Below are positions 1 to 64,000 of a DNA stretch of 64,000 nucleotides, in pieces. Where the stretch lies: the NCBI RefSeq assembly GCF_030028105.1, contig NC_092372.1, positions 57,230,034 through 57,294,033 on the forward strand, in the 5' to 3' direction. This stretch comes from Mobula birostris. Taxonomy: Eukaryota. The stretch's first letter is position 1; each line of letters opens with the position of its first letter. Below the pieces are notes generated by a model. It searched no databases and was not told the origin of the DNA. It saw only the letters and a list, made by a program, of their open reading frames with translations. The translations under genes and the position numbers were made by a program.

Positions 1-762
1 ATCCGGGCCCACTCCACCAGCTTTTCGAGCCCTTGTAGAATCCTCCAGCAGCCTGGGACTGATTCTGTGGTGACTGAGGTCATCCATGAATGCCCTGATA
101 GGTGGTTGCCATTGAGCAGAATTCATTCTGGGCCCTCTGCACTCTGGTTCAGCAGACTTAGTGAGCATGTTCATGGCTAGGGAGAACAGTGTCACTGAGA
201 TTGGCATCATCACAGGGTGCACTATCTCCACCTTGTGCCAGGTTGATGTAATTGCTCCTGAAGAGACCCTCATCCTGAAGTTGCTGTAATAATCAGCGAT
301 AAGGTCTCTGATTCTGCTGGGGATGTGATATTTGGCCAGTGTGAGCTGCACCAGCTTGTGCGGAATGGAGCCATATGCATTTGCCAGGTCGAGCCACAAC
401 ACTGACAGGTTGCCCTTGTTCTCTCTGGCCTCTGATGAGCTGTGTCACCACACCGATGTGCTCCACACAGCCCGGCATCCCTGAAATACCACCCTTCTGG
501 ACTGATGTATCAATATAGGTGTTCTTTGCTGGTAGGTGCACAGCCGGTTAGAAACTGCACTGAAGAAGATCTTCGCCTCGAGACACAGCAGGGAGATGAT
601 GCGAAACTGATCTATCTGGGTGGCATTTTCCTCCTTTGGGATCCACACCCCTTCAGCCACTCTCCACTGTTCTGGGATTTTGCCCCTTCTCCAAAAGGTT
701 CTCAGGATCTTCCACAGATGCAGCAGGAGTTTGGGGCAATTCTTGAAAAGCCACTTTAACAA
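1..762 (-). mobile_element. Hero-clade (R2 group) non-LTR retrotransposon, RT fragment, frameshifted; runs off the window start
   Basis: Minus-strand ORFs 445-762 and 293-541 give FKNCPKLL..LWKILR..W..AEGVWIPKEE...FRIISLL..EAKIFF and IDTSVQKGG..GMPGCVEH, then WLDLANAYGSIPHKL in a shifted frame; these are Hero RT motifs. Confidence 0.85.
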
Positions 763-1021
763 TCTCTTTACAATACTGTATTCAATATAATTGTATCTTC
801 TAATATTACCAGTGAGGTAAAAAATATAAATATCTGGATTCCATTGATTTTTTTCAATTTTAGTAAACCTTTATCATAATGATCCACATTAATTTGTGTT
901 AATGGTTATACAACAATATAGTATTTCAGGTCTCTGAAACAGAAGTAATGTAATGTTTCAAATTCCAAGTGAGCAGTGTATCCTGTACATCTAAGAGCAA
1001 ACTCAGGATACCTTCTCAATT

Positions 1022-18486: not shown

Positions 18487-18868
18487 NNNNNNNNNNNNNN
18501 NNNNNNNNNNNNNNNNNNNNNNNNNNNNNNNNNNNNNNNNNNNNNNNNNNNNNNNNNNNNNNNNNNNNNNNNNNNNNNNNNNNNNNNNNNNNNNNNNNNN
18601 NNNNNNNNNNNNNNNNNNNNNNNNNNNNNNNNNNNNNNNNNNNNNNNNNNNNNNNNNNNNNNNNNNNNNNNNNNNNNNNNNNNNNNNNNNNNNNNNNNNN
18701 NNNNNNNNNNNNNNNNNNNNNNNNNNNNNNNNNNNNNNNNNNNNNNNNNNNNNNNNNNNNNNNNNNNNNNNNNNNNNNNNNNNNNNNNNNNNNNNNNNNN
18801 NNNNNNNNNNNNNNNNNNNNNNNNNNNNNNNNNNNNNNNNNNNNNNNNNNNNNNNNNNNNNNNNNNNN
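18487..18868. other. Assembly gap (382 N)
   Basis: Run of N bases. Confidence 1.
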
Positions 18869-18939
18869 AGGCTTGAAGAAGTTTGGTTTTCATATATTTC
18901 CACACTTTTATTTATATAATCATTGCTAACCTCTTTGAT

Positions 18940-20188
18940 ATGGTCTATGGTCAGGCCACACTTAGGTCCCCTCCAGTTTGCCTACCAGTCCCGACTAGGA
19001 GTTGAGGATGCCATCGTCTACCTGCTGAACCGTGTCTACGCCCACCTGGACAAGCCAGCGAGCACTGTGAGGGTCATGTTTTTTGACTTCTCCAGTGCAT
19101 TCAACACCATCCACCCTGCTCTGCTGGGGGAGAAGCTGACAGCGATGCAGGTGGATGCTTTCCTGGTGTCATGGATTCTTGATTACCTGACTGGCAGACC
19201 ACAGTACGTGTGCTTGCAACACTGTGTGTCTGACAGAGTGATCTGCAGCACTGGGGCTCCATAGGGGCCTGTCTTGTCTCCCTTTCTCTTCACCATTTAC
19301 ACCTCGGACTTCAACTACTGCACAGAGTCTTACCATCTTCAGAAGTTTTCTGATGACTCTGCCATAGTTGGATGCATCAGCAAGAGATGAGGCTGAGTAC
19401 AGGGCTACGGTAGGAAACTTTGTCACATGGTGTGAGCAGAATTATCTGCAGCTTAATGTGAAAAAGACTAAGGAGCTGGTGGTAGACCTGAGAAGAGCTA
19501 AGGTACCCCTGTTTCCATCCAGGGGGTCAGTGTGGACATAGTGGAAGATTACAAATACCTGGGGATATGAATTGACAATAAACTGGACTGGTCAAAGATC
19601 ACTGAGGCTGTCTACAAGAAGGGTCAGAGCCGTCTCTATTTCCCGAGGAGACTGAGGTCCTTCAGCATCTGCCAGACGATGCTGAGGATGTTCTACGAGT
19701 CTATGGTGGCCAGTGCTATCATGTTTGCTGTTGTGTGCTGAGGCAGCAGACTGAGGGTAGCAGACACCAACAGAATCAACAATCTCATTCGTAAGGCCAG
19801 TGATGTTGTGGGGATGGAACTAGACTCTCTGACGGTGGTGTCTGAAAAGAGGATGCTGTCCAAGTTGCATGCGATCTTGGACAATGTCTCCCATCCACTA
19901 CATAATGTCCTGGGTGGGCACAGGAGTACATTCAGCCAGAGACTCATTCCACCGAGATGCAACACAGAGCGTCACAGGAAGTCATTCTTGCCTGTGGCCA
20001 TCAAACTTTACAACTTCTCCCTTGGAGGGTCAGACACCCTGAGCCAATAGGCTGGTCCTGGACATTTCCTGGCGTAATTTACATATTACTATTTAATTAT
20101 TTATGGTTTTATTACTATTTAATTATTTATGGTGCAACAGTAATGAAAACCAATTTCCCCTGGGATCAATAAAGTATGACTATGACTA
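18940..20188 (+). mobile_element. Rex1 LINE, 5'-truncated
   Basis: LQFAYQSRLGVEDAI..RVMFFDFSSAFNTI, KFSDDSAI, SHPLH..SQRL.PRC.TER.RKSFLP; tail gggatcaataaagtatgactatgactat; ATAT at both junctions. Confidence 0.92.
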
Positions 20189-21105: not shown

Positions 21106-23014
21106 ATAGAAACATAGAAAATAGGTGCAGGAGTAGGCTATTCAGCCCTTCGAGCCTGCACTGCCATTCAGTATGATCATGGCTGATCATCCAACTCAGA
21201 ACCCTATACCTGCTTTCTCTCCATACCCCCTGATCCCTTTAGCCACAAGGGTCATATCTAACTCCCTCTTAAATATAGCCAATGAACTGGCCTCAACTGT
21301 TTCCTGTGGCAGAGAATGCCACAGATTCACCACTCTCTGTGTGAAGAAGGTTTTCCTCATCTCGGTCCTAAAAGGCTTCCCCTTTTTCCTTAAACTGTGA
21401 TCCCTCATACTGGACATCCCCAACATCAGGAACAATCTTCCTGCATCTAGCTTGTCCAATCCCTTTAGAATTTTATACGTTTCAATAACATCCCCCCTCA
21501 ATCTTCTAAATTCCAGTGAGTATAAGCCTAGTCGATCCAGTCTTTCATCATATGAAAGTACTGCCATCCCAGGAATCCATCTGGTGAACCTTCTTTGTAC
21601 TCCCTCTATGGCAAAAATGTCTTTCCTCGGATTAGGGGACCAAAACTAAACACAATACTCCAGGTGTGGTCTCACCAAGGCCTTGTACAACTGCAGTAGT
21701 ACCTCCCTGCTCCTGTACTCGAATCCTCTTGCTATGAATGCCAGCATACCATTCGCCTTTTCCACCGCCTGCTGTACCTGCATGCCCACTTTCAATGACT
21801 GGTGTATAATGACACCCAGGTCTCGTTGCACCTCCCCTTTTCCTAATCGACCACCATTCAGATAATAATCTGTTTTCCTGTTCTTGCCACCAAAGTGGAT
21901 AACCTCAGATTTATCCACATTAAATTGCATCTGCCATGAATTTGCCCACTCACCTAACCTATCCAAGTCACCTTGCATCCTCTTAGCATCCTCCTCACAG
22001 CTAACACTGCCGCCCAGCTTCGTGTCATCCGCAAACTTGGAGATGCTGCATTTAATTCCCTCGTCTAAGTCATTAATATATATTGTAAACTACTGGGGTC
22101 CCAGCACTGAGTCTTGTGGTACCCCACTAGTCACTGCCTGCCATTCTGAAAAGGTCCCATTTATTCCCACTCTTTGCTTCCTGTCTGCCAACCAATGTTC
22201 TATCCACATCAATGGGGGTCAGGGGGTATGGAGGGAAGGCTGGGGCGGTGTTCTGAGTTGGATGATCAGCCATGATCATAATAAATGGCGGTGCAGGCTC
22301 GAAGGGCCGAATGGCCTACTCCTGCACCTATTTTCTATGTTTCTATGTTTCTAATACCTTACCCCCAATACCGTGTGCTTTAAGTTTGCACACTAATCTC
22401 CTGTATGGGTCCTTTTCAAAAGCCCTTTGAAAATCCAAATATACCACATCCACTGGTTCTCCCCTATCCACTCTACGAGTTACATCCTCAAAAGATTCTC
22501 TGAAATTCGTCAGACATGATTTTTCCTTTCACAAATCCATGCTGACTTTGTCCGATGATTACACCGCTTTCCAAATGTGCTGTTATCACATCTTTGATAA
22601 CTGACTCTAGCATTTTCCCCACCACCGATGTCAGGCTAACCGGTCTATAATTCCCCAGTTTCTCTCTCCCTCCTTTTTTAAAAAGCGGGGTTACATTAGC
22701 CACCCTCCAATCCTCAGGAACTAATCTAGAATCTAAAGAGTTCTGAAAAATTATCACTAATGCATCCACTATTTCTTGGGCTACCTCCTTAAGCACTCTG
22801 ATGGATGCAGACCATCTGGCCCTGGGGATTTATCTGCCTTTAATCCCTTCAATTTACCTAACACCACTTGCCTACTAACATGTATTTCCCTCAGTTCCTC
22901 CATCTCACTAGACCCTTGGTCCCCTACTATTTCCGGAAGATTATTTATGTCCCCCTTAGTGAAGACAGAACCAAAGTAGTTATTTAATTGGTCTGCCATG
23001 TCCTTGTTCCCCAT
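21106..23014 (-). mobile_element. Young CR1, 5'-truncated
   Basis: ORFs 22488-22796, 21646-21978 and 21196-21567 encode RT and the C-terminus; (CTATGTTT) tail at 21106. Confidence 0.95.
22214..22352 (+). mobile_element. 139-bp CR1 3' end inserted antisense into a same-family CR1
   Basis: Matches the tail at 25535-25665; AAT duplicated at both junctions. Confidence 0.85.
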
Positions 23015-23258
23015 GATTATCGATACCTTTAAATTCTTTGTAGTCCCTAATTTGCTGAGGTAGTAAAATAGCTTCATTTTCACTCCTGACCATTTCAGGC
23101 ATCTCCAAGCCTGAATGCTGAAACTGCAGTGAGCAAAACAGTTCTGTATTGTCTTACTGCTTATTTCTCGCCAACTATCAGTGACAAAAGCAGCTGTTTT
23201 TTGAACACAAACACACACAATTGATGCTATTTAAAATCTGGTCGCTCTAAGCACGGTG

Positions 23259-25798
23259 TTCAATCGCTCACTGCTATGGGTGGAAGTTCCCACTTGCTTC
23301 AAAAAGGCAACAATTATAACAGTGCCTAAGAAGAATAATATGAGCTGCCTTAATGACTATCGCCCAGTAGCACTCACATCTACAGTGATGAAATGCATTG
23401 AGAGGTTGGTCATGACTAAAATGAACTCCTGCCTCAGTAAGGACCTGAACCCATTGCAATTTTCCTATCGCCACAATAGGTCAACAGCAGACACTAGCTC
23501 AATGGCTCTTCACGCGGCTTTAGACCACCTGGGTAACACAAACACTTATGTCAGGATGCTGGTCATCGACTATAGCTCAGCATTTAACACCATCATTCCC
23601 ACAATCCTGATTGAGAAGTTGCAGAACCTGGGCCTCTGTACCTCCCACTGCAATTGGATCCTTGACTTCATAACTGGAAGACCACAATCTGTGCAGATTA
23701 GTGATAATGTCTCCTCATTGATGATCAACACTGGTGCACCTCAGGAGTGTGTGATTAGCCCATTACTCTACTTTCTCTATACCCATGAATGTGTGTCTAG
23801 GCATAGCTCAAATACCATCTATAAACTTGCTGATGATACAACCATTGTTGGTAGAATCTCAGATGGTGATGAGAGGGCGTACAGGAATGAGAAATGCAAC
23901 TAGTGGAGTGGTGTTGCAGCAATAACCTGGCACTCAACGTCAGTAAGACGAAAGAGCTGATTGTGGACTTTAGAAAGGGTAAGATGAAGGAACACATACC
24001 AATCCTCATAGGGGGATCAGAAGTGGAGAGAGTGAAGAGTTTCAAGTTCTTGGGTGTCAAGATCTCTGAGGACCTAACCTGGTCCCGACATATCGATGCA
24101 GTCATAAAGAAGTCAAGACAGTAACTATACTTCATTAGGAGTTTGAAGAGATTGGTATGTCAACAAATACTCTCAAAAATTTCCATAGATGTACAGTGGA
24201 CAGTATTCTGACAGGCTGCATCACTGTCTGGTATGGGGGGGGGGGTGCTACTGCACAGGGCTGGAAGAAGCTGCACAGGGTTGTAAATTTAGTCAGCTAC
24301 AAAGTACCCAGGACATCTTCAAGGAGCAGTTTCTCAGAAAGGACATTATTAAGGATGTCCAGCGCCCAGGGCATGCCATTTTCTCACTGTTACCATCAGG
24401 TAGGAGATACAGTAGCCTGAAGGTACACACTCAGCAATTCAGGAACAGCTTCTTCCCCTCTGCCATTCAATTCCTAAATGGACATTGAACCTGTGGACAC
24501 TACCTCACTTTTTTAATACATATTTTTTTCTGTTTTTTGCACAATTTTTAATCTATTCACTATGTATATATGTACTCGAATCCTCTTGCTATAAATGCCA
24601 GCATATCATTCACCTTTTTCACCGCCTGCTGTACCTGCATGCCCACTTTCAATGACTGGTGTATATTGACACCCAGGTCTCGTTGCACCTCCCCTTTTCC
24701 TAATCGGCCACCATTCAGATAATAATCTGTTTTCCTGTTTTTTACCACCAAAGTGGATAACTTCACATTTATCCACATTAAATTGCATCTGCCATGAATT
24801 TGCCCGATAGGTTAGGTGAGTGGGCAAATTCATGGCAGATGCAATTTAATGTGGATAAATCTGAGGTTATCCACTTTGGTGGCAAAAACAGGAAAACAGA
24901 TTATTATCTGAATGGTGGCCGATTAGGAAAAGGGGAGGTGCAACGAGATCTGGGTGTCATTATACACCAGTCATTGAAAGTGGGCATGCAGGTACAGCAG
25001 GCGGTGAAAAAGGCGAATGGTATGCTGGCATTCATAGCTAGAGGATTCGAGTACAGGAGCAGGGAGGTACTACTGCAGTTGTACAAGGCCTTGGTGAGAC
25101 CACACCTGGAGTATTGTGTGCAGTTTTGGTCCCCTAATCTGAGGAAAGACATCCTTGCCATAGAGGGAGTACAAAGAAGGTTCACCAGATTGATTCCTGG
25201 GATGGCAGGACTTTCATATGATGAAAGACTGGATGAACTAGGCTTATACTCGTTGGAATTTAGAAGATTGAGGGGGGATCTGATTGAAACGTATAAAATC
25301 CTAAAGGGATTGGACAGGCTAGATGCAGGAAGATTGTTCCCGATGTTGGGGAAGTCCAGAACGAAAAGTCACAGTTTGAGGATAAAGGGGAAGCCTTTTA
25401 GGACCGAGATTAGGAAAAACTTCTTCACACAGAGAGTGGCAAATCTGTGGAATTCTCTGCCACAGGAAACAGTTGAGGCCAGTTCATTGGTTATATTTAA
25501 GAGGGAGTTAGATATGGCCCTTGTGGCTAAAGGGATCAGGGGGTATGGAGGGAAGGCTGGTGCAGGGTCCTGAGTTAGATGATCAGCCATGATCATATTG
25601 AATGGCGGTGCAGATTCGAAGGACCGAATGGCCTACTCCTGCACCTATTTTCTATGTTTCTATGTTTTTATTATTTATTTATTATTATTTTTTTTTTTTT
25701 TCTTTCTTCTATGTTATGTATTGCATTGAACTGCTGCTGCTAAGCTAACAACTTCCATGACACATGCCGGTGATAATAAACCTGATTCTGATTCTGAT
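23259..25798 (+). mobile_element. Rex1/Babar LINE (RT to 3' tail), tail interrupted by CR1
   Basis: 215-aa ORF with [28 protein letters not shown]; tail aataaacctgattctgattctgat. Confidence 0.92.
24571..25667 (+). mobile_element. Young CR1 3' part with a 5' fold-back inverted duplication
   Basis: Uninterrupted 259-aa ORF 24794-25573 (CR1 ORF2 C-terminus); 24571-24805 is the reverse complement of 24822-25055. Confidence 0.93.
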
Positions 25799-40305: not shown

Positions 40306-40795
40306 ACAGCTGTGAAGATCCCTGCTGCTCCTGATCTCCGTCTCAGAGGCCGATGTTAGGCTGTCTTTAAAGAGAGTGAACCCTCGCAAGGCGAACGGTC
40401 CCAATGGAGTACCTGGTAAGGCTATGAAAACCTGTGCCAACCAACTAGCAGAAGTATTCGAGGACATTTTCAACCTCTCACTACTACGGGTAGAAGTTTC
40501 CACTTGCTTCAAAAAGGCAACAATTATACTAGTGCCTAAGAAGAATAGCGTGGGCTACCTCAATGACTATCGCCCAGTAGCACTCACACCGACAAGGATG
40601 AAATGCATTGAAAGGTTGATCACCACTAGACTGAACTCCTGTCTCAGCAAGGACCTGGACCCATTGCAATTTGCCTATTGCCACAATAGGTCAATGGCAG
40701 ACGCAATCTCAATGGCTCTCCACGTGGCTTTAGACCATCTGGACAACACAAACACCTATGTCAAGATGCTGTTCATCGACTATAGCTCAGCACTT
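40306..40795 (+). mobile_element. Rex1/Babar RT fragment
   Basis: [47 protein letters not shown]. Confidence 0.9.
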
Positions 40796-43795
40796 GATAT
40801 CATAATGTCCAAGGATACACATTGTATCGAAAGCACAGGCAGGAAGGCATAGGGGGTGGTGTTGCTCTATTGGTAAAAAATAAAATCAAATCATTAGAAG
40901 AGATGACATAGGGTCAGAAGGTGTGGAATCATTGTAGATAGAGCTTAGAAATGCAAAGGTAACAAGACCCTGATAGGAGTTGTACACAGACCACCAAACA
41001 GTAGTAAAAATGTGGCATACAAATTACGATAGGAGGTAGCAAATGCATGCTAAAAGGGCAATGTTACAATAGTCATTGGGAATTTCAATATGCATGTAGT
41101 TTGGGAAAATCAGGTTGGTGCTGGAATTCAGGAGGGAGAATGTCTTGAGTGCCAGTGAGATGGCTTTTTAGAGCAGCTTTGTGTGAAGCTCACTAGAGGA
41201 TCAATTATTCCAGACTGGGTGTTGTGCAATGAACCCGAATTGATAAGAGACCTTAAGGTAAAAGAGCCCTTATGGGGAAAGTGATCATAATATGATGAAA
41301 TTCACCCTGAAATTTGAGAAGGAAAAGTTAAAATCAGATGTATTAGTGCTACAGTGGAGTAAAGGGAATGACAGAAACATAAGAGAGGAGTTGGCCAAAA
41401 CTGATTGGAAAAGAACATTGGCAGGAATTATGGCAGAGTAGCAATGACTTGAATTTCTGGAAGCAATTTGGAAGGCACAGGATATGTAGTAAACATCTCA
41501 AAGGGAAAGAAGTATTCTGAGGGAAAGATGACACAACGAGAGAACTCAAAGCCAACATAAAAACCAAAGAGAGGGCATACAATAAAGCAAAAAATAGTGG
41601 AAAGTTAAAGGATTGGAAAGCTTTCAAAAACCAATAGAAGGCAACTAAAAAGTCATTAAGAAGGTAAAGGTAGAATACAAAAGTAAGCTAGACAATAACA
41701 TTAATGATGATACCAAATGTTTATTCAGATACATAGAGTGGATATCAGACTGCTGGAAAATGATGCCGCAGAGGTAGTAATGAGGGACTGAACTGAATAA
41801 GTATTTTGCATCAGTCTTCACGGTAGAAGACAGTAGAAGTACAGAGGAAGTTCCAGGTGTCAGGGGGTCATGCAATTTGTGAAGTTGAAATAACCAGAGA
41901 AAAGTTTCTTGGGAAACTGACGGGTCTGAAGGTAGAGAAGTCACCGGGACCAGGCGGTGTACATCCCAGAGTTCTGAAAGAGCTGGCTGAAGAGATCATG
42001 ATGGCATTAGCAATAATCTCTCAAGAACTACTAGATTCTGGATTGGTTCAAGAAGACTGGAAAAATGCAAGTGTCATTCCACTCTTCAAGAAGGGAAAGA
42101 GGCAGAAGAAAGGAAACTATAGGCCATTCAGTCTGACCTCAGTGGTTGGGAAAATGTTGGAGTCTATTATTAAGATGAGGTGTCAGGGTACTTGGAGGCA
42201 CATGATAAAATAGGCTGCAGTCAGCATGGTTTCCTTAAGGGAAAATGCATGAGAAATCTGGTGGAATTCCTTGAAAAAATAACAGGCAAGATAGACAAAG
42301 GAGAATTCATTGATGTTATGTACACAGAGTTTCAGAAGGCTTTTGACAAAGTGTCACACATGAGCCTGCTTCATAAGCTATGAGCCCCTGTATGACATGA
42401 AATATTCTAGCTTGGTAAAGCAGTGGGTGATTGGCAGGAGACAAAGAGTGGGAATAATGGGAAACATTTCTAGCAGGCTGCCGGTGACTAGTGGTGTTCC
42501 ACAGGGATCTGTGTTGTGACCAATTCTTTTTAAATTATACGTCAATGATTTGGATGATGGAATTGAGGCATTGTTGCAAAGTTTGCAGACAATATGAAGA
42601 AAGGTGGAGGGCAGGTACTTTTGAAGAAGGAGAGAGGCTACAGAAGGACTTAGATGGATTATGAGAATGGGCAAAGAAATGGCAGATGGAATACAGTGTC
42701 GAGAAGTGCATGGCCATGCACTTTGGTAGAAGAAATGAAAGGGTTGACTATTTTATAAATGGAGAAAAAATATAAAAAAACTGAGGTGCAAAGAGACTTG
42801 GGAATCTTTGTGCAGGATTCCATAAAGGTTAATTTACAAGTTGAGTCTGTGGTGAGGAAGGCAAATGGAATGTTATCATTCATTTCAAGCGGACCAGGAT
42901 ATAAAAGCTAGGATGTAATGGTGAAACTTTATGAAGCACTAGTGAGCAAGATTGGGCCCTTTATGAGGGGTGATTGATAAGTTTGTGGCCTAAGGAAGAA
43001 CGCGATAAGTTATACAGCTCACCTTACATGCATATGCAGTTCAATGCTTTGAGTTATTACGCAGAAAGTTTGAAGTTAATACTCATCAGTTAATAACTCA
43101 TCAGGGGTGATTGATAAGTTTGTGGCCTATGGTAGGAGATGAGTTATTAATGAATTATTATGTTGAAAAATAAATGTGCTTGGTTTTCTAAAACTGACTC
43201 CTTCTACCTTAGGCCACAAACATATCAATTACCCCTCATACCTTAGAAAGTATGTGCTGAAACTGGAGAGGGTTCAAAGGAGATTCATGAAAATGATTTC
43301 AGGATTGAATGGCTTGTCATATGAAGAGTGTTTGATGGCTTTGGGCCTGTATTTGCTGGAATTCAGAAGAATGAGGGCTGACCTCATTGAAACCTATTGA
43401 ATGGTGAAAGGCCTTGATAGAGTGGATATGGAGAGGATGTTTCCTCTGGTGGGAGAGTCTAAGATTAGATGACACAGCTTCAGAATAAAGGGGTGTCCTT
43501 TTAGAATGAAGATGAGGAGGAATTTCTTTAGGCAGAGAAACTGTGAAATTCTTTGCCACAGGCAGCTGTGGAGGCCACGCTTTTATGTATATATGTATAT
43601 TCATGCATATTCAAGTTTTATCTATATACATTTGTATTAAGAATCTTGATAGATTGTTTGCCTAGGGCACGAAGGGATACAGGGAGAAGGCAAGAGAACG
43701 GGGCAGAGAGAAAAATAGGATTAGCCATGAGGAAATGGCGGAGAAGACTCAAAGAGCCAAATGGCTTAATTATGCTCCTAAATCTTATGATTCTT
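40796..43795 (+). mobile_element. CR1 ORF2 (APE to 3' tail), decayed
   Basis: APE remnants; KSPGPGGVHPRVLKE, NYRP.SLTSVVGK, FQKAFDKV; C-terminus and tail. Confidence 0.9.
42964..43238. mobile_element. Mariner-type MITE in CR1
   Basis: TIRs tgaggggtgattgataagtttgtggcctaagg / ccttaggccacaaacatatcaattacccctca; TA on both sides; extra internal TIR near 43102. Confidence 0.85.
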
Positions 43796-44160
43796 CTGTG
43801 TGTCTGTCTCACATGTTCAGATATTTCTGAATATGTTACACCAGAAGAGTGGTTCATAAAGAAATCTACAGCAGTCTTTGTAGTCATTTAAAAGATCACC
43901 TGTCACTTGTAGTCCATCCATGCATGATACTGTATGCTCTGCTGAACATGCAACATGAAGGTTTGAGGTGTTGTGCATGTTATGGAAGGTGTCATAGGTT
44001 ATAACTGGACATAGACAGGATGTAGAACTAGGCTGAAAAGTGACAGATGGCTCAAAGGTACATTTATTAGCAAAATATGCAACTCTGAAATTCTTCTCCA
44101 GATAGCCATAAAATCAACAAAGAAAAAAAACAGCTGCACGATCATCAACCATCTAATACC

Positions 44161-44768
44161 CCCCCCCACACACAAAAAACCCATGGAACTGGCATATCAA
44201 CCCCCAAATCCCCCTTCCCCCATCAACCCCCAAATCCCCCTTCCCCTATCAACCCCCAAATCCCCCTTCCCCCTATCAACCCCCAAATCCCCCTTCCCCC
44301 ACACACAGAAAACCCATGGAACTGGCATATCAACCCCCAAATCCCCCTTCCCCTATCAACCCCCAAATCCCCCTTCCCCCTATCAACCCCCAAATCCCCC
44401 TTCCTCCACACACAGAAAAGCCATGGAACTGGCATATCAACCCCCAAATCCCCCTTCCCCTATCAACCCCCAAATCCCCCTTCCCCCTATCAACCCCCAA
44501 ATCCCCCTTCCCCCTATCAACCCCCAAATCCCCCTTCCCCCACACACAGAAAAACCATGGAACTGGCATATCAACCCCCAAATCCCCCTTCCCCTATCAA
44601 CCCCCAAATCCCCCTTCCCCCACACACAGAAAAAACCATGGAACTGGCATATCAACCCCCAAATCCCCCTCCCCCCTATCAACCCCCAAATCCCCCTTCC
44701 CCTATCAACCCCCAAATCTCCCTTCCCCCTATCAACCCCCAAATCCCCCTTCCCCCACACACAGAAAA
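44161..44768. repeat. Higher-order C-rich/G-rich minisatellite
   Basis: 17 copies of the 26-27-bp unit ATCAACCCCCAAATCCCCCTTCCCC(C)T in blocks of 4,3,4,2,4, separated by an acacacagaaaa(n)ccatggaactggcat spacer. Confidence 0.97.
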
Positions 44769-44849
44769 AACAAGAAATATTGGACGAAAAACACAGAATA
44801 TAAAAAAAAACTATAAGACTGAAAGAAGTCCAAGTTCATATGCAAAATG

Positions 44850-50835: not shown

Positions 50836-51645
50836 GATTGAGAAGTGAACCTTTATGGATTGCTTGCTCGGAGCAGTGGCCAGGAATCACAAGTAGAAAC
50901 AGTACTTCGGAGGAATCTACCTTTTCCTGACACACCTCTGATCGTGTGTAAGCAGCCATATTACAGCTGGCTTTTCTGATAGCCTGCCAGAACATAACAA
51001 CAAAAGTAATGATAGCAGGAATAGGACTTTCAGCTCTCACCCCTGCTCCAATATTTAGTCTTTTAATTGTCAATAGTTTTCCTCAGTGTCATTTACCCCC
51101 AATAACCCTGTATGCCTTGATTCCCGATATAGCTAAAAAATATCTTTTGATCTGTCTTGAATATATTCAGTGACTGATTCCCCACAACCATCTCTGGACA
51201 AAAATTCCACAAAGACTCACTGCTGTCATATGGAGAAGTTTCTTCTCATCCTATCCCTGGATGACCTTCTCATTATTTGAAGACTGTGGCTTTTGATTCT
51301 GCATACCCCAACCAGGGGAACATCATACTTATATCTGTCAAGTCTTGTTAAAATAAAATAGTTCCAATAAGATTAAATCTTATTCTTTTAAATTCAGGTA
51401 AGTAGAGACTCAGTCTTCTTGATATCTCTTCAATGGGCATACCCACTATTTCAAGATTTAATCATAATTGCAAGTATATCCTTCCTTAGGAAGGGAGGCA
51501 GATTCAGTTTCACCAGAGCTCTGTATAATTCTATGAAGAAGCCTATACATTATTGCTCAAATCCATGTACAGTAAAGGCAAATGTGCTATCTTTTTGTAT
51601 CCCAATGTTAATTTTGTATGCTGCATGTACACCCTGGGTCCCTCA

Positions 51646-54600
51646 GTCATGGCTTGGCTTCGCGGAGGAAGATTTAGGAAGGGGACTGCCCACGTCTGCT
51701 GTAGGCTCACTGGTGGCTGACAAGGCCAATACGGGACAGGCAGGTCTGGCAACAGCGGCTGCAAGGGAAATTCTGTTCTGGGTTTGGTGCTGCTGTGTCA
51801 CGGTTCTTCTTCCTTCTCCTTTTGTCCTTATTGCCAGCCCTGCGTATGTTCTCGAAGGAGGAGACAGACTGGTGAATAGTGTGTCACCAGGCCTCGCGAT
51901 CGGACGCTAGATTAGACCACTGGCAATGGTCAATGTGACAGGCACAAAGGGATTTCTTCAGAGAGTCCTTGTACCTCTTCTTCGGTGCCCCTCTGTCATG
52001 GTGACCAGTGGAGAGTTCACCATACAGCACAATCTGGGGCAGGCGATGATCCTCCATCCTGGAGACGTGGCCTGCCCAGCACAGCTGTGTCTTCAACAGC
52101 ATGGCCTCAACGTTGGTGACCTCCGCCTGTTCGAGGACTTCGATGTTGGTGATGAAGTCACTCCAGTGGATGTTGAGGATGGTGTGGAGGCAGCGCTGGT
52201 GGAAACGCTCAAGGAGTCATAGGTGGTGACGGTAGGTGACCCACGACTCGGAGCCATACAGGAGGGTGGTCAGTACAACGGCTCTGTACACGCCGATCTT
52301 TGTGCCTTTCTTCAAATGCTTGTTGTTCCAGACTCCGTTGCACAGCCTGCCGAATGTGCTGTTTGCCTTTGCCAGTCTGTTGTCAATCTGTTTGTCGATC
52401 TTGGCATCTGACCCGATGGTGCACCCCAGGTAGCTGAACTGGTGGACTGTCTTCAGCTCTACCTCACCAATGGTGATGCAGGAAGGATGGTAATCTTTCT
52501 GAGGTGCGGGCTGATGGAGAACTTCTGTCTTCTTCAAGCTGACTTCCAGTCTGAAGAGCTCGGCATCGTCTGCGAAGCAAGATGTTATACGCTGCAGGGC
52601 TGTCTTTGTGTGGGCAACAAGGGCAGCATCATCGGCGAAGAGTAGCTCTCAGATGAGTTATTCCAATGTCTTGGTGTGGGACTGTAGTCACCTCAGGTTG
52701 AACAGGCTGCCATTGGTGCGGTATTGGATGTAGACACCATCCTCATCTTCAAGGTCTTCTGTGGCCCCTTCGAGCATCATGCTGAAGATGCTGAAGAGAA
52801 TCGGCACAAGGACGCAGCCTTGCTTTACTCCATTGCCTATTGGGAAGGGTTCTGAGAGGTCGTTGTTGTGTCTGACTTGGCCACGCTGATCTTCATGTAG
52901 CTGGATGACCATGCTGAGGAACTTTGGGGGGCATCCCAGTTGTTCCATCATTTACCACAGACATTCCTGCTCACGGTGTTAAACACTTTGGTAAGGTTGA
53001 CAAATGTCATGTACAATCCCTTGTTCTGTTCCCTACATTTCTCTTGGAGCTGCCTGAGAACAAATACCATGTTGGTGGTGCTCCAGTTGGCTCCGAAGAC
53101 ACACTGGCTCTCTGGGAGGTGTTCTTCTGCAATGATGGCCACCAGTCTGTTCAGGAGTACTCTTGCGAGGAGTTTTCCTGCAATAGAGAGAAGAGTTATC
53201 CCCTGGTAGTTGGAACACTCAGACTTTTCCCCCTTGTTCTTATACAGGGCGATGATGACTACATCACAGAGGTCCTGTGGTAGTTTACCTTGTTCCCAGC
53301 AGCAGACAAAGAACTCGTGGAGTTTGGTGTGTAACGCTGGACTCCCATGCTTCTAAATCTCAGGTGAGATTCCATCATCTCCTGCTGCCTTGCCACTTTT
53401 CAGCTGCTCTATGGCCTTGACTGTCTCTTCTAGGGTTGGGATCTTGTCCAGTTCTGTTTTCTCTGGCTGTTGTGGGATGCAATGAATTGCTGAGTCTTGG
53501 ACAACGCAGCGGGCGCTGAAGAGAGTCTGGAAATGTTCCGACCACCGATTCAGGATGGACTCTTTGTCTGTGAAGAGCGCCTGACCGTCTGCACTGCACA
53601 AGTGAATCTGGACCTGGTGCGAAGGGCTGTACACCACTCTCAGGGCTTCATAAAACCCCTGTAGTTACCGGTGTCTGCACAAAGCTGAGTTCTCTTTGCG
53701 AGTTTGGTCCACCACATGTTCTGAATCTCTCAAGACCTGCGCTGGAATTTGCTGCATGCGAGGTGGAAGGCTGCTTTCTTATCAGGACAAGACGGCTCAA
53801 CAAGGTGCGCCTGGTGGGCGGATCTCTTCTTCACCAGCAATTCTTGGATCTCCTGGTTGTTTTCATTAAACCAGTCCTTGTTCTTCTTTGTGGAAAACCC
53901 TAGGACTTCTTCAGAGGTTTGCAGGATGGTGCTTTTTAGGTGTTCCCAAAGTACTTCTGGAGAGGAGTCTGCAGGGAAACTGCGATCCTGAAGCCTTGAC
54001 TGAAAATTTATCTGAAAGTCAGCTTTCACTTTAGCTGACTGGAGGTCGCCAACTTGAAACTTCTTCCTTGGAGCGTCCCTCTCTTTGGCTTGGGTTTGAA
54101 ATGAAGACTGAGTTTGCAGTGGACAAGACGATGGTCCTTATGACACTCTGCGCTGGGCATCGCTCGGGTGAGTAAGATGTCCCGAAGGTCTCTCTGGTGC
54201 ACCAAGATGTAGTCTATGAGGTACCAATGCTTGGACCGAGGATGCATCCAGGTTGTCTTCAGACTGCCTTTCTGCTGGAAAATGGTGTTAGTGATGGTGA
54301 GTTGCTGCTCTGCGCAGAACTCTAACAGAAGGCGCCTGTTGTTGTTGCAGTTTCCAACACCATGTTTGCCAAGTACTCCTTTCCAGGCTTCTGAATCTTG
54401 GCCTACTCTGGAATTGAAGTCGCCAAGGATGAAGACCTTGTCATCTGCAGGGGCGTTCCGTACGAGGTTGTGCAGATCAGAGTAAAACTTGTCCTTTTCT
54501 GCAGGATCCGCTTGAAGAGTGGGAGCATACACACTGAACGGTGTGGCATGCTGCTTGGTTCAAAGTGGGAAGCGCATGGAGATGATGTGGTCGGAGTGAC

Positions 54601-55165
54601 CCGTTGGCAGTTTTTCAAGTTTGGAGGCAATGGGGTTCCTGATCATAAAGCCAATGCCAGAAAGGTGTCTCTCAGTCTCTGGCTTGCTTGACCAGTAGAG
54701 GGTGTAGCCGGCACCATGTTCTTGAAGGTTGCCTTCCTCTGGGAAGCATACTTCACTGAGAGCAGCGATGTCGACATTCAGTCTTGAAAGTTCATGCGCA
54801 ACTAGAGCGGATCGTCGTTCTGGGAGACCACTGTCTGCTGTATCGAGCATGGTTCTGACGTTCCAGCATGCGAGCTTTAGTCCTTGCACTCCTTGTGAGG
54901 CAGGTGTGCACCTTTTCTTTTTTGTTGTTCGATCGCATTTGAGGATGCCCGTTGACCGCGGCTAGCCAACAGGGGGAAATGGAAATGAGCTTTGGTTAGG
55001 CCACCTTTTCTAGGCCCCACTCCATGTGGAGCAAGCAGTGCTGTCCCTAGAGAAGGCTGCTTGGTCGTTCAAGGATATTGTCGTCTCTGGGGTCAACATC
55101 AGACGACCCATACACCTGAACCACCTGCATGCAGGATCGGAACTGCAGTCCCACAGTATTCTCAT
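51646..55165 (-). mobile_element. Near full-length RTE-clade LINE (AviRTE-like), pseudogenised
   Basis: Collinear minus-strand ORFs: APE (LACWNVRTM, ERRSALVAHELSRLNVDIAALSE, YAPT, LGDFN, TWMHPRSKHW..IDY), linker, RT (GKAAGDDGI, LRQLQEKCREQ, GVKQGCVL, FADD) and C-terminus (WAGHVSRMED.RLP...LYGEL); 3' end cgcgaagccaagccatga. Confidence 0.95.
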
Positions 55166-56129
55166 CTTAAATGACTTACATCATACATCTGCATAGTTTG
55201 TTTAGTTTTGATTTGAGACCTTGGTTTCAGATGGAACAATATCACTTTCAGTCTTTACATAAAAAATATCATATTATGATCATGCTTCTCTATAGGCCCT
55301 TCAACTACTGCATGATTAATGACCCCTTTCTCAATGCACAGTACAACATCAAAAAAAGCCTGTTTCCTCTTTCACTACAATGGCTTTGTCATCTTGTTTC
55401 ACACATTTGGATCTATGCATTACACCTCAGAATAATCTAGCATGCCAGTGGTCAGATAGAAAATGCAAGTGTATCCAACTCCCAATCGTGCTCCTAGTTT
55501 TAACACTGAGTTCAGGGTGTCTCTGTAAAGTACTGGGTCAAGAAGTTGGAGACATTTTGTATCAGTCGCGGTTGTCACATTAAACATGGTTCCATTATTT
55601 AGAAGGAGCTTACAGCTTACATAGAAAAGATAGGTAAAGTGGAATATAGTTTTAATATTTGCTTTAATTAATTAATTTCATTTTTTTCGACCGACATAAT
55701 CCAGTTTCGCAGAAATTAGTATTTTTTATTTTTTTAATTTTTTGTTCAAATAAATTGTTATTTTGTATATATTTTAAGGCACATTAACTGTTTCCATGTA
55801 TCTCTGATCACTGGAGCAATCTGGGGCAGAAATTTTGTCTGATAATGCCGTGTGTGGACTATACTGTCCTGAGTAAAGGTCAAAGGAGTGAGAACTCAAG
55901 GATACTGGGAATGAAGCAGCTCAAAGGACAAGTGAGGTGGACACCATTCCAAAGGAGTTGAGCTCAAGGCATTGACTGTGCTGATAAACAATCCAGTTCA
56001 TTTGGACATAAATCCCACTTTATGAGCATACTCACTGCATTTATGGTACAATAACACGAGTCTTAATCATCTGAAATAACAGAAGTAGAATCTATTAAAT
56101 GTCTTTAAAATGAGAAAAAAGACGAATAT

Positions 56130-58129: not shown

Positions 58130-59045
58130 AAGTCAAGTTCATGGTCATTAGCAAAAGTACATGTATAGAAAGGTACAATGAAAAACTTACTTGCAGCAGC
58201 ATGGCAGGAAGATGGCATTATTAGCAGCATCCACAAGAAAACATAAATTAAACATAATATTTAGATAAAAGACAATTAGAACAAATAAGAAGTCCATTGT
58301 ATACTGAGGTAGTTATTATGGTTGTGCAGATTGGTTCAGGAGATGAATGGTTGAAGGGACGTAGCTTTTCTTGAATGTAATGGTTTGGGACTGAGGGCAT
58401 CTGTGTCCTCTGCCTGCTTTGTGGTTGTGAGAACATGACATGACCAGGATGCTAGGGATCTTTGATTTTAGATCCTGTAGATGCCACCGATGGTGGGGAG
58501 GGATGTGCCCCTGATATATTGGACTGAGTCTACAACTTTCTGCAGCTTCTGTGCATTCGAATTGCTGTACCAGACTGAAATGCATCCAGTCAGGTTACTT
58601 TCAACACTATCTTTATAGAAGTTTGTTAGAGTATTCAGTGACATTCTGAACCTTCTTAATCTTTCAAGAAAGTAAAGATGATGATGCACCATTCTGGTGA
58701 TTGAATCTATCTGCTGGGGTCAGGACAGGTCATCTGGTATATTAGCAACATGAGTGTAAAGCTTTTGAACCTCTCTACCAATGTGGACAGGCACATTTTC
58801 ATCTTCCTAACCCTTACTGAAGTCAACAATCAGTTCTTCTTTTTTAAGAGACATTGGCCGAGTGGTTGTTCTTGGGACAACATGTAACCAGGTGTCGACT
58901 GTATGCTGACTCATCACCACCACTGACGTATCCAACAACAGTGGTATCATCAACAAATTTGTCCATGGCACTGGAGCTGCACTTAGCCACACTGTCATAA
59001 GTGCATAGGGAGTGGAGAAAGGGCCAAGGTGGACGGTGTTGATGG
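58130..59045 (-). mobile_element. Rex1/Babar RT-to-tail fragment
   Basis: KFVDDTTVVG, KEELIVDF, LYFLERLRRF, ESNLTGCISVWY. Confidence 0.85.
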
Positions 59046-59060
59046 TCAGCGCTAAACTTA

Positions 59061-59591
59061 TGCTCAGTGGCTACTTTATGGAATACCCCCTGACCTAATA
59101 AAGTGGCCATTGAGTGTAAATTTGTGGCCTTCTGCTGCAGTAGCCCATCTGTTTCAGGGTTCAATGTGTTGTGCATAGGTAAATGCTCTTCTGCACACCA
59201 CTGTTGTAATGTGTGGTACTTGAGTTACTGTCACCCTCCTGTCATCTTGAATCAGTCTGGCCATTCTCCTCTGACTTCTCTCATTAACAAGATGCTTTCA
59301 CCCACAGAATTGCCACTCACTGAGTGCTCTTGCTTATCACAACATTCTCTGTAAACTCTAGAGTTCGATGTGTGTGAAAATCTGAGATACTCAGACCATC
59401 CCGTCAGGCAAGACCATCGTCAACGTCACTCAGATCAAACGTCTTCCCCTTTCTGACATTTGGTCTGAATAACAACTGAACCTCTTGATTTTGTCTGCAT
59501 ACTTTTATGCATTGAGTTGCTGCCACCTCATTAATGATATTTACATTAATGAGCAGGTGTACAGGTGTACCTAATAAATTGGCCACTGTGT
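59061..59591. mobile_element. Tc1-family non-autonomous element with three TIR copies
   Basis: gctcagtggctactttat; internal inverse cctaataaagtggccattgagtgta; terminal gtacctaataaattggccactgtgta. Confidence 0.8.
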
Positions 59592-62814: not shown

Positions 62815-64000
62815 GGAACTTCCATCCAGAACTGATCAAGCATTTTTTATGGAAAACGAAAGGAACAATATGTTTTTGTGATTTATTCATGAATAACTGT
62901 TTCATGTCCTTTGAACAGTTGTCTAATAAATAAAATTTGCCTAGATCACATTTCTTCAGATATTTACAGATTAGAAATTTTTGAAGGTTACCTACTTTTC
63001 GAATATCATATCAAATTGAAATTACAGAAATTTTTTTAGGTTTATACGCCTATCAGAAGAGCAATTGTTTATGATTTAATTACAAAAGTACATTTAGGTA
63101 TGTCTGATAAAATTAAGAATGAATGGGAAAGAGAACTTCAGGTACCCTTACCCATAGAGAAATGGGAGAAAATTCTCCAACTAGTTAACACTTTTTCAAT
63201 GTGTGCTAGACTTGCTTTGATACAATTTAAGGTGGTTCATAAGGCCCATATATCCACAGATAAGTTAGCTCGTTTCTATGGTCATATAAATCCTGTCTGT
63301 GACAGATGTAATTCTGAGGTAGCTTTCTTGACACATATGTTCTGGTCTTGCCCTCTTTTGAAAAAATATTGGAAAGACATTTTGAAATGATTTCAGTAGT
63401 TTTACATATTGATTTACAACCTAATCCTATTACTGCAATTTTTGGATTACCAATGATAAACTTTATTCATTTATCTCTTTCAGCTTGTCATTTGATTGCA
63501 TTTGTTACATTAATATCCAGAAGATCCATTTTATTTAAATGGAAAGATTCTAATCCCCCTACTACATTTCAATAGTTTTCCCAAACTATAACATGTTTAA
63601 ATTTGGAAAAAATTAGGAGTGGTACCACTGATCCTTCGGTTAAATTTGAAGAAACTCGGAGGCCATTTAGTCAACATTTTTATATGATGTAAGTTGACCT
63701 TTTCCGAATCCTTTTTAATAACTTCTTGTTTGTGTACAGAGGAGCGGAGTTAATGCCAAATAATGATTTTAACTGATGAAATATGGCAGCCCATTTTCTG
63801 TTTTGTTTTTTTTTAATGTAGGAGGTAAAAACATTTTTTTGAATCTTTTTCATGGTCAGTTATTAAGAGAATGGGAGGTTTAAATTAAATATATTACTCG
63901 GAGTCTGTGTCTGTATACGTTAACCGTTATTAATGTAATCTCGATCTCTGTATCATTATCATTGCTATATTTATCAATTTGAAACTCAATAAAAAGGATT
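62815..64000 (+). mobile_element. L1-clade LINE ORF2 C-terminus and 3'UTR
   Basis: SFEQL...LPRSHFFRYLQIR, WERELQ, IQFKVVH, CDRC...LTHMFWSCP (CCHC-type), AIFG; AATAAA at 63988. Confidence 0.9.

Follow-up and report, generated by a model that had tools for sequence, protein, structure and literature searches.

We read the minus-strand element at positions 51648–55147 of the window (the whole 64,000-nucleotide stretch of DNA analysed) as an inactivated, 5′-truncated non-LTR retrotransposon (LINE) of the RTE clade, which stands beside AviRTE, lies in what is probably a ray genome, and whose ancestor likely entered rays by old horizontal transfer. To this reading we assign a probability of about 0.7. 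The features of the copy and of its surroundings are collected in Table 1.

Table 1. Features of the RTE copy, its flanks and its relatives, in window positions unless a locus is named.
Feature	Position	Strand	Basis or remark
RTE copy, dead, 5′-truncated, of the AviRTE-related aquatic RTE group	51648–55147	−	blastn against L001; same ends against L003 and L009
Single broken ORF, ~1059 codons from the first in-frame ATG at 54850	51674–54961	−	frame open from 54961
APE endonuclease domain; first strand upstream of the first in-frame ATG	54122–54865	−	Pfam PF03372/PF14529, motifs, frame analysis
Reverse transcriptase domain, three pieces, FADD motif retained	52415–53226	−	Pfam PF00078 in three fragments
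C-terminal cysteine motif, found in intact relatives too	51740–51763	−	
Short 3′UTR, ~26 bases, clade-wide end motif	51648–51673	−	
Retained 3′ part of the 5′UTR, predicted multi-hairpin	54962–55147 (conserved stretch noted from 54940)	−	compensatory changes
Conserved 5′UTR in relatives	L001:645-875, L003:100-330, L009:1000-1230, L013:2310-2535; also L051, L070, L026, L021		
Candidate target-site duplication, 5′ copy, 10 bp, one mismatch to the 3′ copy	55148–55157	−	
Candidate target-site duplication, 3′ copy	51638–51647	−	
Much older CR1 fragment adjoining the 3′ end of the RTE copy	51102–51637	−	30–36% amino acid identity to CR1 proteins
Young CR1 fragment, outside the RTE element	24782–25570	+	

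The copy is colinear with the relative L001 (76.2% identity over 3525 columns, window 55146–51647, blastn), a metagenome contig with an intact ORF that belongs to the 80 loci retained out of 308 relatives. Its stop-to-stop pieces match the Pfam families Exo_endo_phos and RVT_1, and it tiles intact relatives of 1059 residues in four tblastn segments. The layout is that of the RTE clade, with one ORF in which an N-terminal APE endonuclease is followed by a reverse transcriptase (RT). The copy lies inside an in-group with 100/100 support that includes the bird AviRTE proteins and so groups with RTE-clade elements; AviRTE is described in PMC4844689 as a member of the RTE superfamily.

The first-pass annotation had recognised an APE–RT element with a characteristic 3′ end. 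Both domains are found by Pfam on the minus strand, colinear with L001, and the quoted 3′ end is present, its motif being common to L001 and L009. The tail consists of one repeat unit only, with no tandem tail beyond it. The element had also been called richer in GC and more CpG-retaining than its flanks, which is borne out by a GC content of 0.51 vs 0.40 and a CpG observed/expected ratio of 0.45, compared with 0.17 in the 5 kb to the left and 0.27 in the 5 kb to the right. The host, taken for a cartilaginous fish, is more exactly, and probably, a ray: the nearby young CR1 fragment is 93% identical to Mobula, 88% to the skate Leucoraja, 84% to Hypanus and 66–72% to shark and chimaera rows among the 120 of 5429 matches listed. 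No second copy of the element was found within the 64-kb window.

The 5′UTR had been described as complete; the upstream part that relatives share with AviRTE is missing from the copy. Upstream of the first in-frame ATG, homology to the relatives reaches only ~300 bases. Beyond that point five longer relatives (L001, L004, L009, L010 and L054) continue, and the segment they share matches the AviRTE 5′UTR by eye, a region given in PMC4844689 as ~800 bp long with a conserved 126-bp PCR segment. Since these relatives continue upstream with an AviRTE-like segment, in a region of ~800 bp in AviRTE, the copy is likely 5′-truncated rather than complete. It is because of this truncation that the 126-bp segment, present in the same five relatives, would be absent here.

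The copy is flanked by a candidate target-site duplication. A match as long occurs in 54 of 5000 random flank pairs (P 0.011), and its 10 bp fall within the range of 7–15 bp stated for RTEs in PMC6007223. Its 5′ copy partly overlaps a weak similarity to the UTR of the relatives, and the 5′ junction is uncertain by ~20 bases. When a continuation of the adjoining older CR1 fragment was sought across the insertion, the score of the right flank was within that of shuffles.

Two relatives, at L013:2310-2320 and L014:4400-4410, start at nearly the same 5′UTR position as the copy (window 55146–55170). This start point falls within a predicted long hairpin, in its 3′ arm (independent copy, other source; n = 2), and may mark a stop of reverse transcription, a site of processing or a hot spot for truncation. 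Because L013 and L014 begin at almost the same point of the UTR, a natively short-headed family is possible in place of truncation. The idea that a twister or HDV-like ribozyme marks the point of truncation, prompted by known ribozyme motifs, was rejected as having no Rfam support; Rfam gave 0 matches in the window at the gathering score and 0 at E ≤ 1 in seven related loci. Upstream of the shared UTR segment, the 5′ head of L004, L009, L010 and L054 is unlike that of AviRTE or L001, and these differing heads suggest that 5′ heads may have been exchanged within the clade.

Decay, previously judged modest, proved to be heavy. The ORF contains ten in-frame stops (at 54562, 53732, 53355, 52954, 52690, 52660, 52651, 52219, 51886 and 51709) and three net frameshifts (near 54077, 53655 and 52966), each a net one-base loss with respect to L001, together with a compensating +1/−1 pair and one 3-base deletion. 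Six of the ten stops fall at CGN arginine codons of L001. At 361 columns where 23 relatives are invariant, the copy differs in 44; each relative, omitted singly, differs in 0.3–7.7%. Three relatives share 37 CpGs, of which 21 now read TG or CA in the copy, and of the 780 non-CpG second positions that are shared, 36 (4.6%) have changed. The CpG observed/expected ratio of 0.455 is a quarter to a third lower than the 0.60–0.66 of the relatives. The copy is dead and old, and has decayed neutrally, largely via CpG deamination. Given the slow elasmobranch clock (a low mutation rate is reported in PMC10587355), its age likely runs to at least tens of millions of years. The epaulette-shark pedigree rate gave too wide a range to be used for dating.

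The closest proteins are marine. Amino acid identity over the full ORF is 77% to the marine proteins P0010 and P0008 and 73.5% to amphioxus P0005, and the aquatic RTEs around AviRTE as a whole (amphioxus P0005/P0007, marine P0002/P0008/P0010, medaka and carp) reach ~74–77%. Over the first ~370 residues, marine proteins are 76–77% identical. Values are 64–73% for decayed songbird copies and 68–72% for gene models of the electric ray Narcine bancroftii. No protein relative above 83% identity was found among the matches listed (120 of 515 and 120 of 344). At the nucleotide level L001 is 76% identical, and the UTR core and the 3′ end are alike across the group.

What sets the copy apart from this group, among the contig loci and database proteins compared, is its own branch of 0.22 in the 27-row tree, with no close partner, and its synonymous divergence. 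The dS to L001, its best DNA relative, is 1.12 (dN 0.15), dS exceeds 1.1 in 11 of 11 comparisons with DNA relatives, and 58–73% of synonymous sites differ. The lineage lies within a star-like group of aquatic RTEs, in which the tree backbone has no supported order. AviRTE has already been placed among aquatic RTEs in PMC4844689, where RTE-4_AMi and fragments from Oryzias and Pelodiscus are given as its aquatic neighbours. The Narcine models P0043 and P0284 belong to the same clade and also come from a batoid; they group with a carp element (98/95), apart from the copy, and cover only 22–24% of the columns. This suggests that rays hold at least two lineages of the AviRTE-related group.

The clade as a whole is discordant with the phylogeny of its hosts: elements of amphioxus, urchin, oyster, shrimp, octopus, carp, medaka, birds and rays are interleaved in the trees, where internal branches are short. 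This discordance is clade-wide, the copy's own place having no supported partner. In addition, one protein cluster built at 90% identity, itself 76% identical to the copy, contains a fragment labelled Exaiptasia (sea anemone). Host discordance, the grouping of Narcine with carp and this cluster together make old horizontal movement within the clade likely, and to judge from sequence comparison rays plausibly received the element by transfer. The comparisons yielded no donor; L001, nearest to the copy in DNA, is a metagenome contig at dS 1.12. The young CR1 fragment in the same window is only ~40–54% identical to bird and turtle matches (among 120 of 5429 matches listed), a yardstick limited by its being a different element under different constraints. 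Two 90%-identity clusters unite ENA proteins with a protein from a named animal, Lytechinus in the cluster of P0309 and Exaiptasia in that of P0004, and would be candidate recent marine transfers if the hosts differ. Of 20 clusters looked up for taxon names, three carried one.

The strongest alternative is vertical inheritance in cartilaginous fishes, in which the identity reflects purifying selection and a slow clock and transfers took place only elsewhere. We consider it unlikely. Retrotransposons are described in PMC7070016 as being under purifying selection even if vertically inherited, and therefore a protein identity of 75% alone is no proof of transfer. The dS values above 1.1 in every DNA pair and the low elasmobranch mutation rate point the same way, and monophyly of the copy with Narcine is compatible with the data (p 0.07, not rejected, with Narcine covering under a quarter of the columns). 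Against vertical descent, the free tree joins Narcine with the carp element, and a dS of 1.1 to L001, a marine metagenome contig, would be low if it reflects a split between phyla. Among the 240 protein matches listed (120 of 515 and 120 of 344), none is named after a shark, skate, chimaera or stingray, taxa that are in the database; this is weak evidence, because dead copies often go unannotated. Old transfer into the ray lineage stays our preferred reading. Comparable cases are RTE-Snek and RTE-Kret of sea snakes, described as donor-less with nearest marine relatives 75–85% identical (bioRxiv 10.1101/2020.02.27.968685), and Perere-3/Sr3, RTEs described as patchy across aquatic animals (PMC13155389). 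Those cases rest on presence/absence or dS tests, and are likened to ours by description only.

With regard to AviRTE itself, the claim of an AviRTE-lineage element stands in that a close marine relative of AviRTE is present in a cartilaginous fish, and fails in that this relative lies outside the AviRTE clade. AviRTE was represented in the trees by decayed suboscine gene models (Manacus, Lepidothrix, Pitangus and Willisornis), without nematode rows or the published consensus. After low-coverage or redundant rows had been dropped, the trees comprised 85 of 242 rows (quick), 38 rows (quick) and 27 rows (careful). The copy falls outside the AviRTE clade in all three trees, an outcome named beforehand as refuting the claim, and the songbird proteins form one clade that excludes it (100/100, stem 0.14 in the 27-row tree). 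Nesting of the copy with manakin sequences is rejected by the AU test (p-AU 1.1e-7). At 20 bird-diagnostic columns, the copy has the bird state in two and the non-bird majority state in 12; 23 other relatives have the bird state in 0–1 of 20.

All four peptides that had been quoted for their AviRTE likeness are present in the copy, and they divide in what they say. HELSRLN.DIAALSE is exact in 27 of 117 non-bird relatives vs 0 of 10 bird rows, and EHGAGYTLYWS in 32 of 114 vs 1 of 11, so the first two are commoner outside birds. The third and fourth lean to birds as was claimed, occurring at ≤1 mismatch in 7 of 17 bird vs 24 of 184 non-bird rows and in 5 of 13 vs 4 of 212 rows, respectively. By hand count against the Apaloderma AviRTE consensus, amino acid identity is ~80% over the endonuclease (~52 differences in 258 residues) and ~75% over the first ~370 residues (372). 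AviRTE subfamilies are stated in PMC4844689 to share 83–99% nucleotide identity over their full length. Because protein identity, a hand-counted proxy, is only ~75–80%, a nucleotide identity of 83% to AviRTE is unlikely.

The copy works like AviRTE, as a near cousin and not a member. As far as PMC4844689 describes AviRTE, both have a single ~3.2-kb ORF for APE and RT and a short 3′UTR. They differ in forming separate clades, in the diagnostic residues (2 of 20), in the 5′UTR head missing here, and in their hosts: AviRTE is reported there from tropical birds and filarial nematodes, a range outside which the batoid host falls.

That the ray lineage is the sister of AviRTE, near its aquatic source, we regard as quite improbable. 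Grouping the copy as sister of all birds is compatible with the data (AU test p 0.42, not rejected), the endonuclease identity of ~80% would fit, the two longer quoted motifs are closer to birds than to most non-birds, and the 85-row quick tree has both in a weak 26-row set (SH-aLRT 86). Sisterhood was recovered in none of the three trees, the two diagnostic states compare with 0–1 in the other relatives, and three of three bird rows examined are closer to P0002 and P0010 than to the copy, with the copy's decay lowering its own values. As a pointer to the aquatic source of AviRTE, for which it had been put forward, the copy is no better than several other lineages. A true AviRTE subfamily that moved recently between rays and the bird–nematode network has a negligible probability, since only shared motifs and the 3′ end speak for it and the rejected nesting, the fully supported bird clade without the copy and the 12 non-bird majority states speak against it.

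A contaminant or misassembled invertebrate sequence, which the invertebrate nearest named relatives might indicate, is equally far-fetched: host-type CR1 and the candidate duplication flank the copy, its CpG decay is vertebrate-style, and 28–40% of its sampled words occur in eight sequencing runs under two organism labels, no run holding half. Runs with small word shares (12 at 0.09–0.18, four at 0.04) were set aside as evidence. RNA runs containing words of the copy were absent among the matches listed, and AviRTE DNA as a contaminant was not found in viral or genome contig collections.

As its domains show, the single ORF of the source element encoded an APE endonuclease–reverse transcriptase protein. 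As is established for RTEs, this protein would have cut genomic DNA and used the nick for target-primed reverse transcription of its own RNA, beginning at the short 3′ end. Synthesis probably halted inside the 5′UTR, leaving a headless copy between 10-bp duplications. The copy has since decayed neutrally, largely by CpG deamination. Stems retained in the UTR may have helped translation to start upstream of the first ATG.

The retained 5′UTR (~200 bases) is 87–88% identical to three relatives. In a nine-sequence alignment, compensatory changes are seen at 21 of the 54 pairs predicted, a number reached in 0 of 500 shuffles, with slid partners giving 2–6. One alignment served both to derive the structure and to score the covariation, several rows are related, and folded by itself the UTR of the copy is no better than shuffles (z −0.79); for these reasons the covarying stems are put forward as a lead. 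A pseudoknot was rejected, with compensatory change in 0 of 10 pairs.

In the copy, as in 31 of 59 scored rows, the first strand of the endonuclease is encoded ahead of any in-frame ATG, so initiation likely dispenses with a standard ATG or involves a frame change, as far as reading frames can indicate. A conserved ACG is in frame and open in the copy and in L001, and is ATG in L013 and L014. As a general start codon this ACG is unsupported, because in 7 of the 11 rows with the motif a stop intervenes or the frame differs. An IRES-like role has been proposed for ribozymes of other non-LTR elements (as described in PMC6765202), and conserved RTE 5′UTR segments are known from bipartite SINEs (as described in PMC5786205). 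No prior description of this 5′UTR structure was found in a literature search by title.

With these results the AviRTE-related group of RTEs gains a ray lineage, a modest addition given that aquatic relatives were already expected. The copy likely adds rays to the known web of marine transposon exchange, without revealing the source of AviRTE. In the available text on the 370-sequence alignment of PMC4844689, no chondrichthyan was found by name, and no paper on AviRTE-like elements in sharks or rays was found by title or abstract start in the open-licence literature. For Rex1 and L2, PMC13343379 already describes transfer of LINEs between rays and teleosts. The covarying 5′UTR offers a testable handle on translation start in ATG-poor elements. 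It is improbable that the ray lineage is the aquatic sister of AviRTE and a node in a marine transfer web of anemone, amphioxus, urchin, bony fish and ray, with the whole group carrying an undescribed 5′UTR element of ~200 bases for an ATG-less start. Were this so, such an element might let the group work in any host.

In the window, CR1-like matches cover 12190 bases in 31 intervals, and no host gene was recognised among window ORFs of 110 codons or more. Two young CR1 fragments lie in inverted orientation at 21106–25667, 94% identical over 858 bases, with a self-inverted stretch of 487 bases at 24571–25055; the pair is possibly a 5′ inversion or an assembly fold-back. An RT fragment (PF00078) at window 1–870 (−) looks unlike CR1 or RTE and presumably resembles R2-group or NeSL-type elements. 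Further RT fragments at 18920–19381, 23235–23900, 40316–40849 and 58847–59224, three of them with RVT_1 matches, we take to be a Rex1-like family. There is also an L1/Tx1-type zf-RVT fragment at 63040–63387, a gap of 382 N bases at 18487–18868, and a compound C-rich minisatellite at 44144–44771 with periods of 26–27, 81, 107 and 134 bases.
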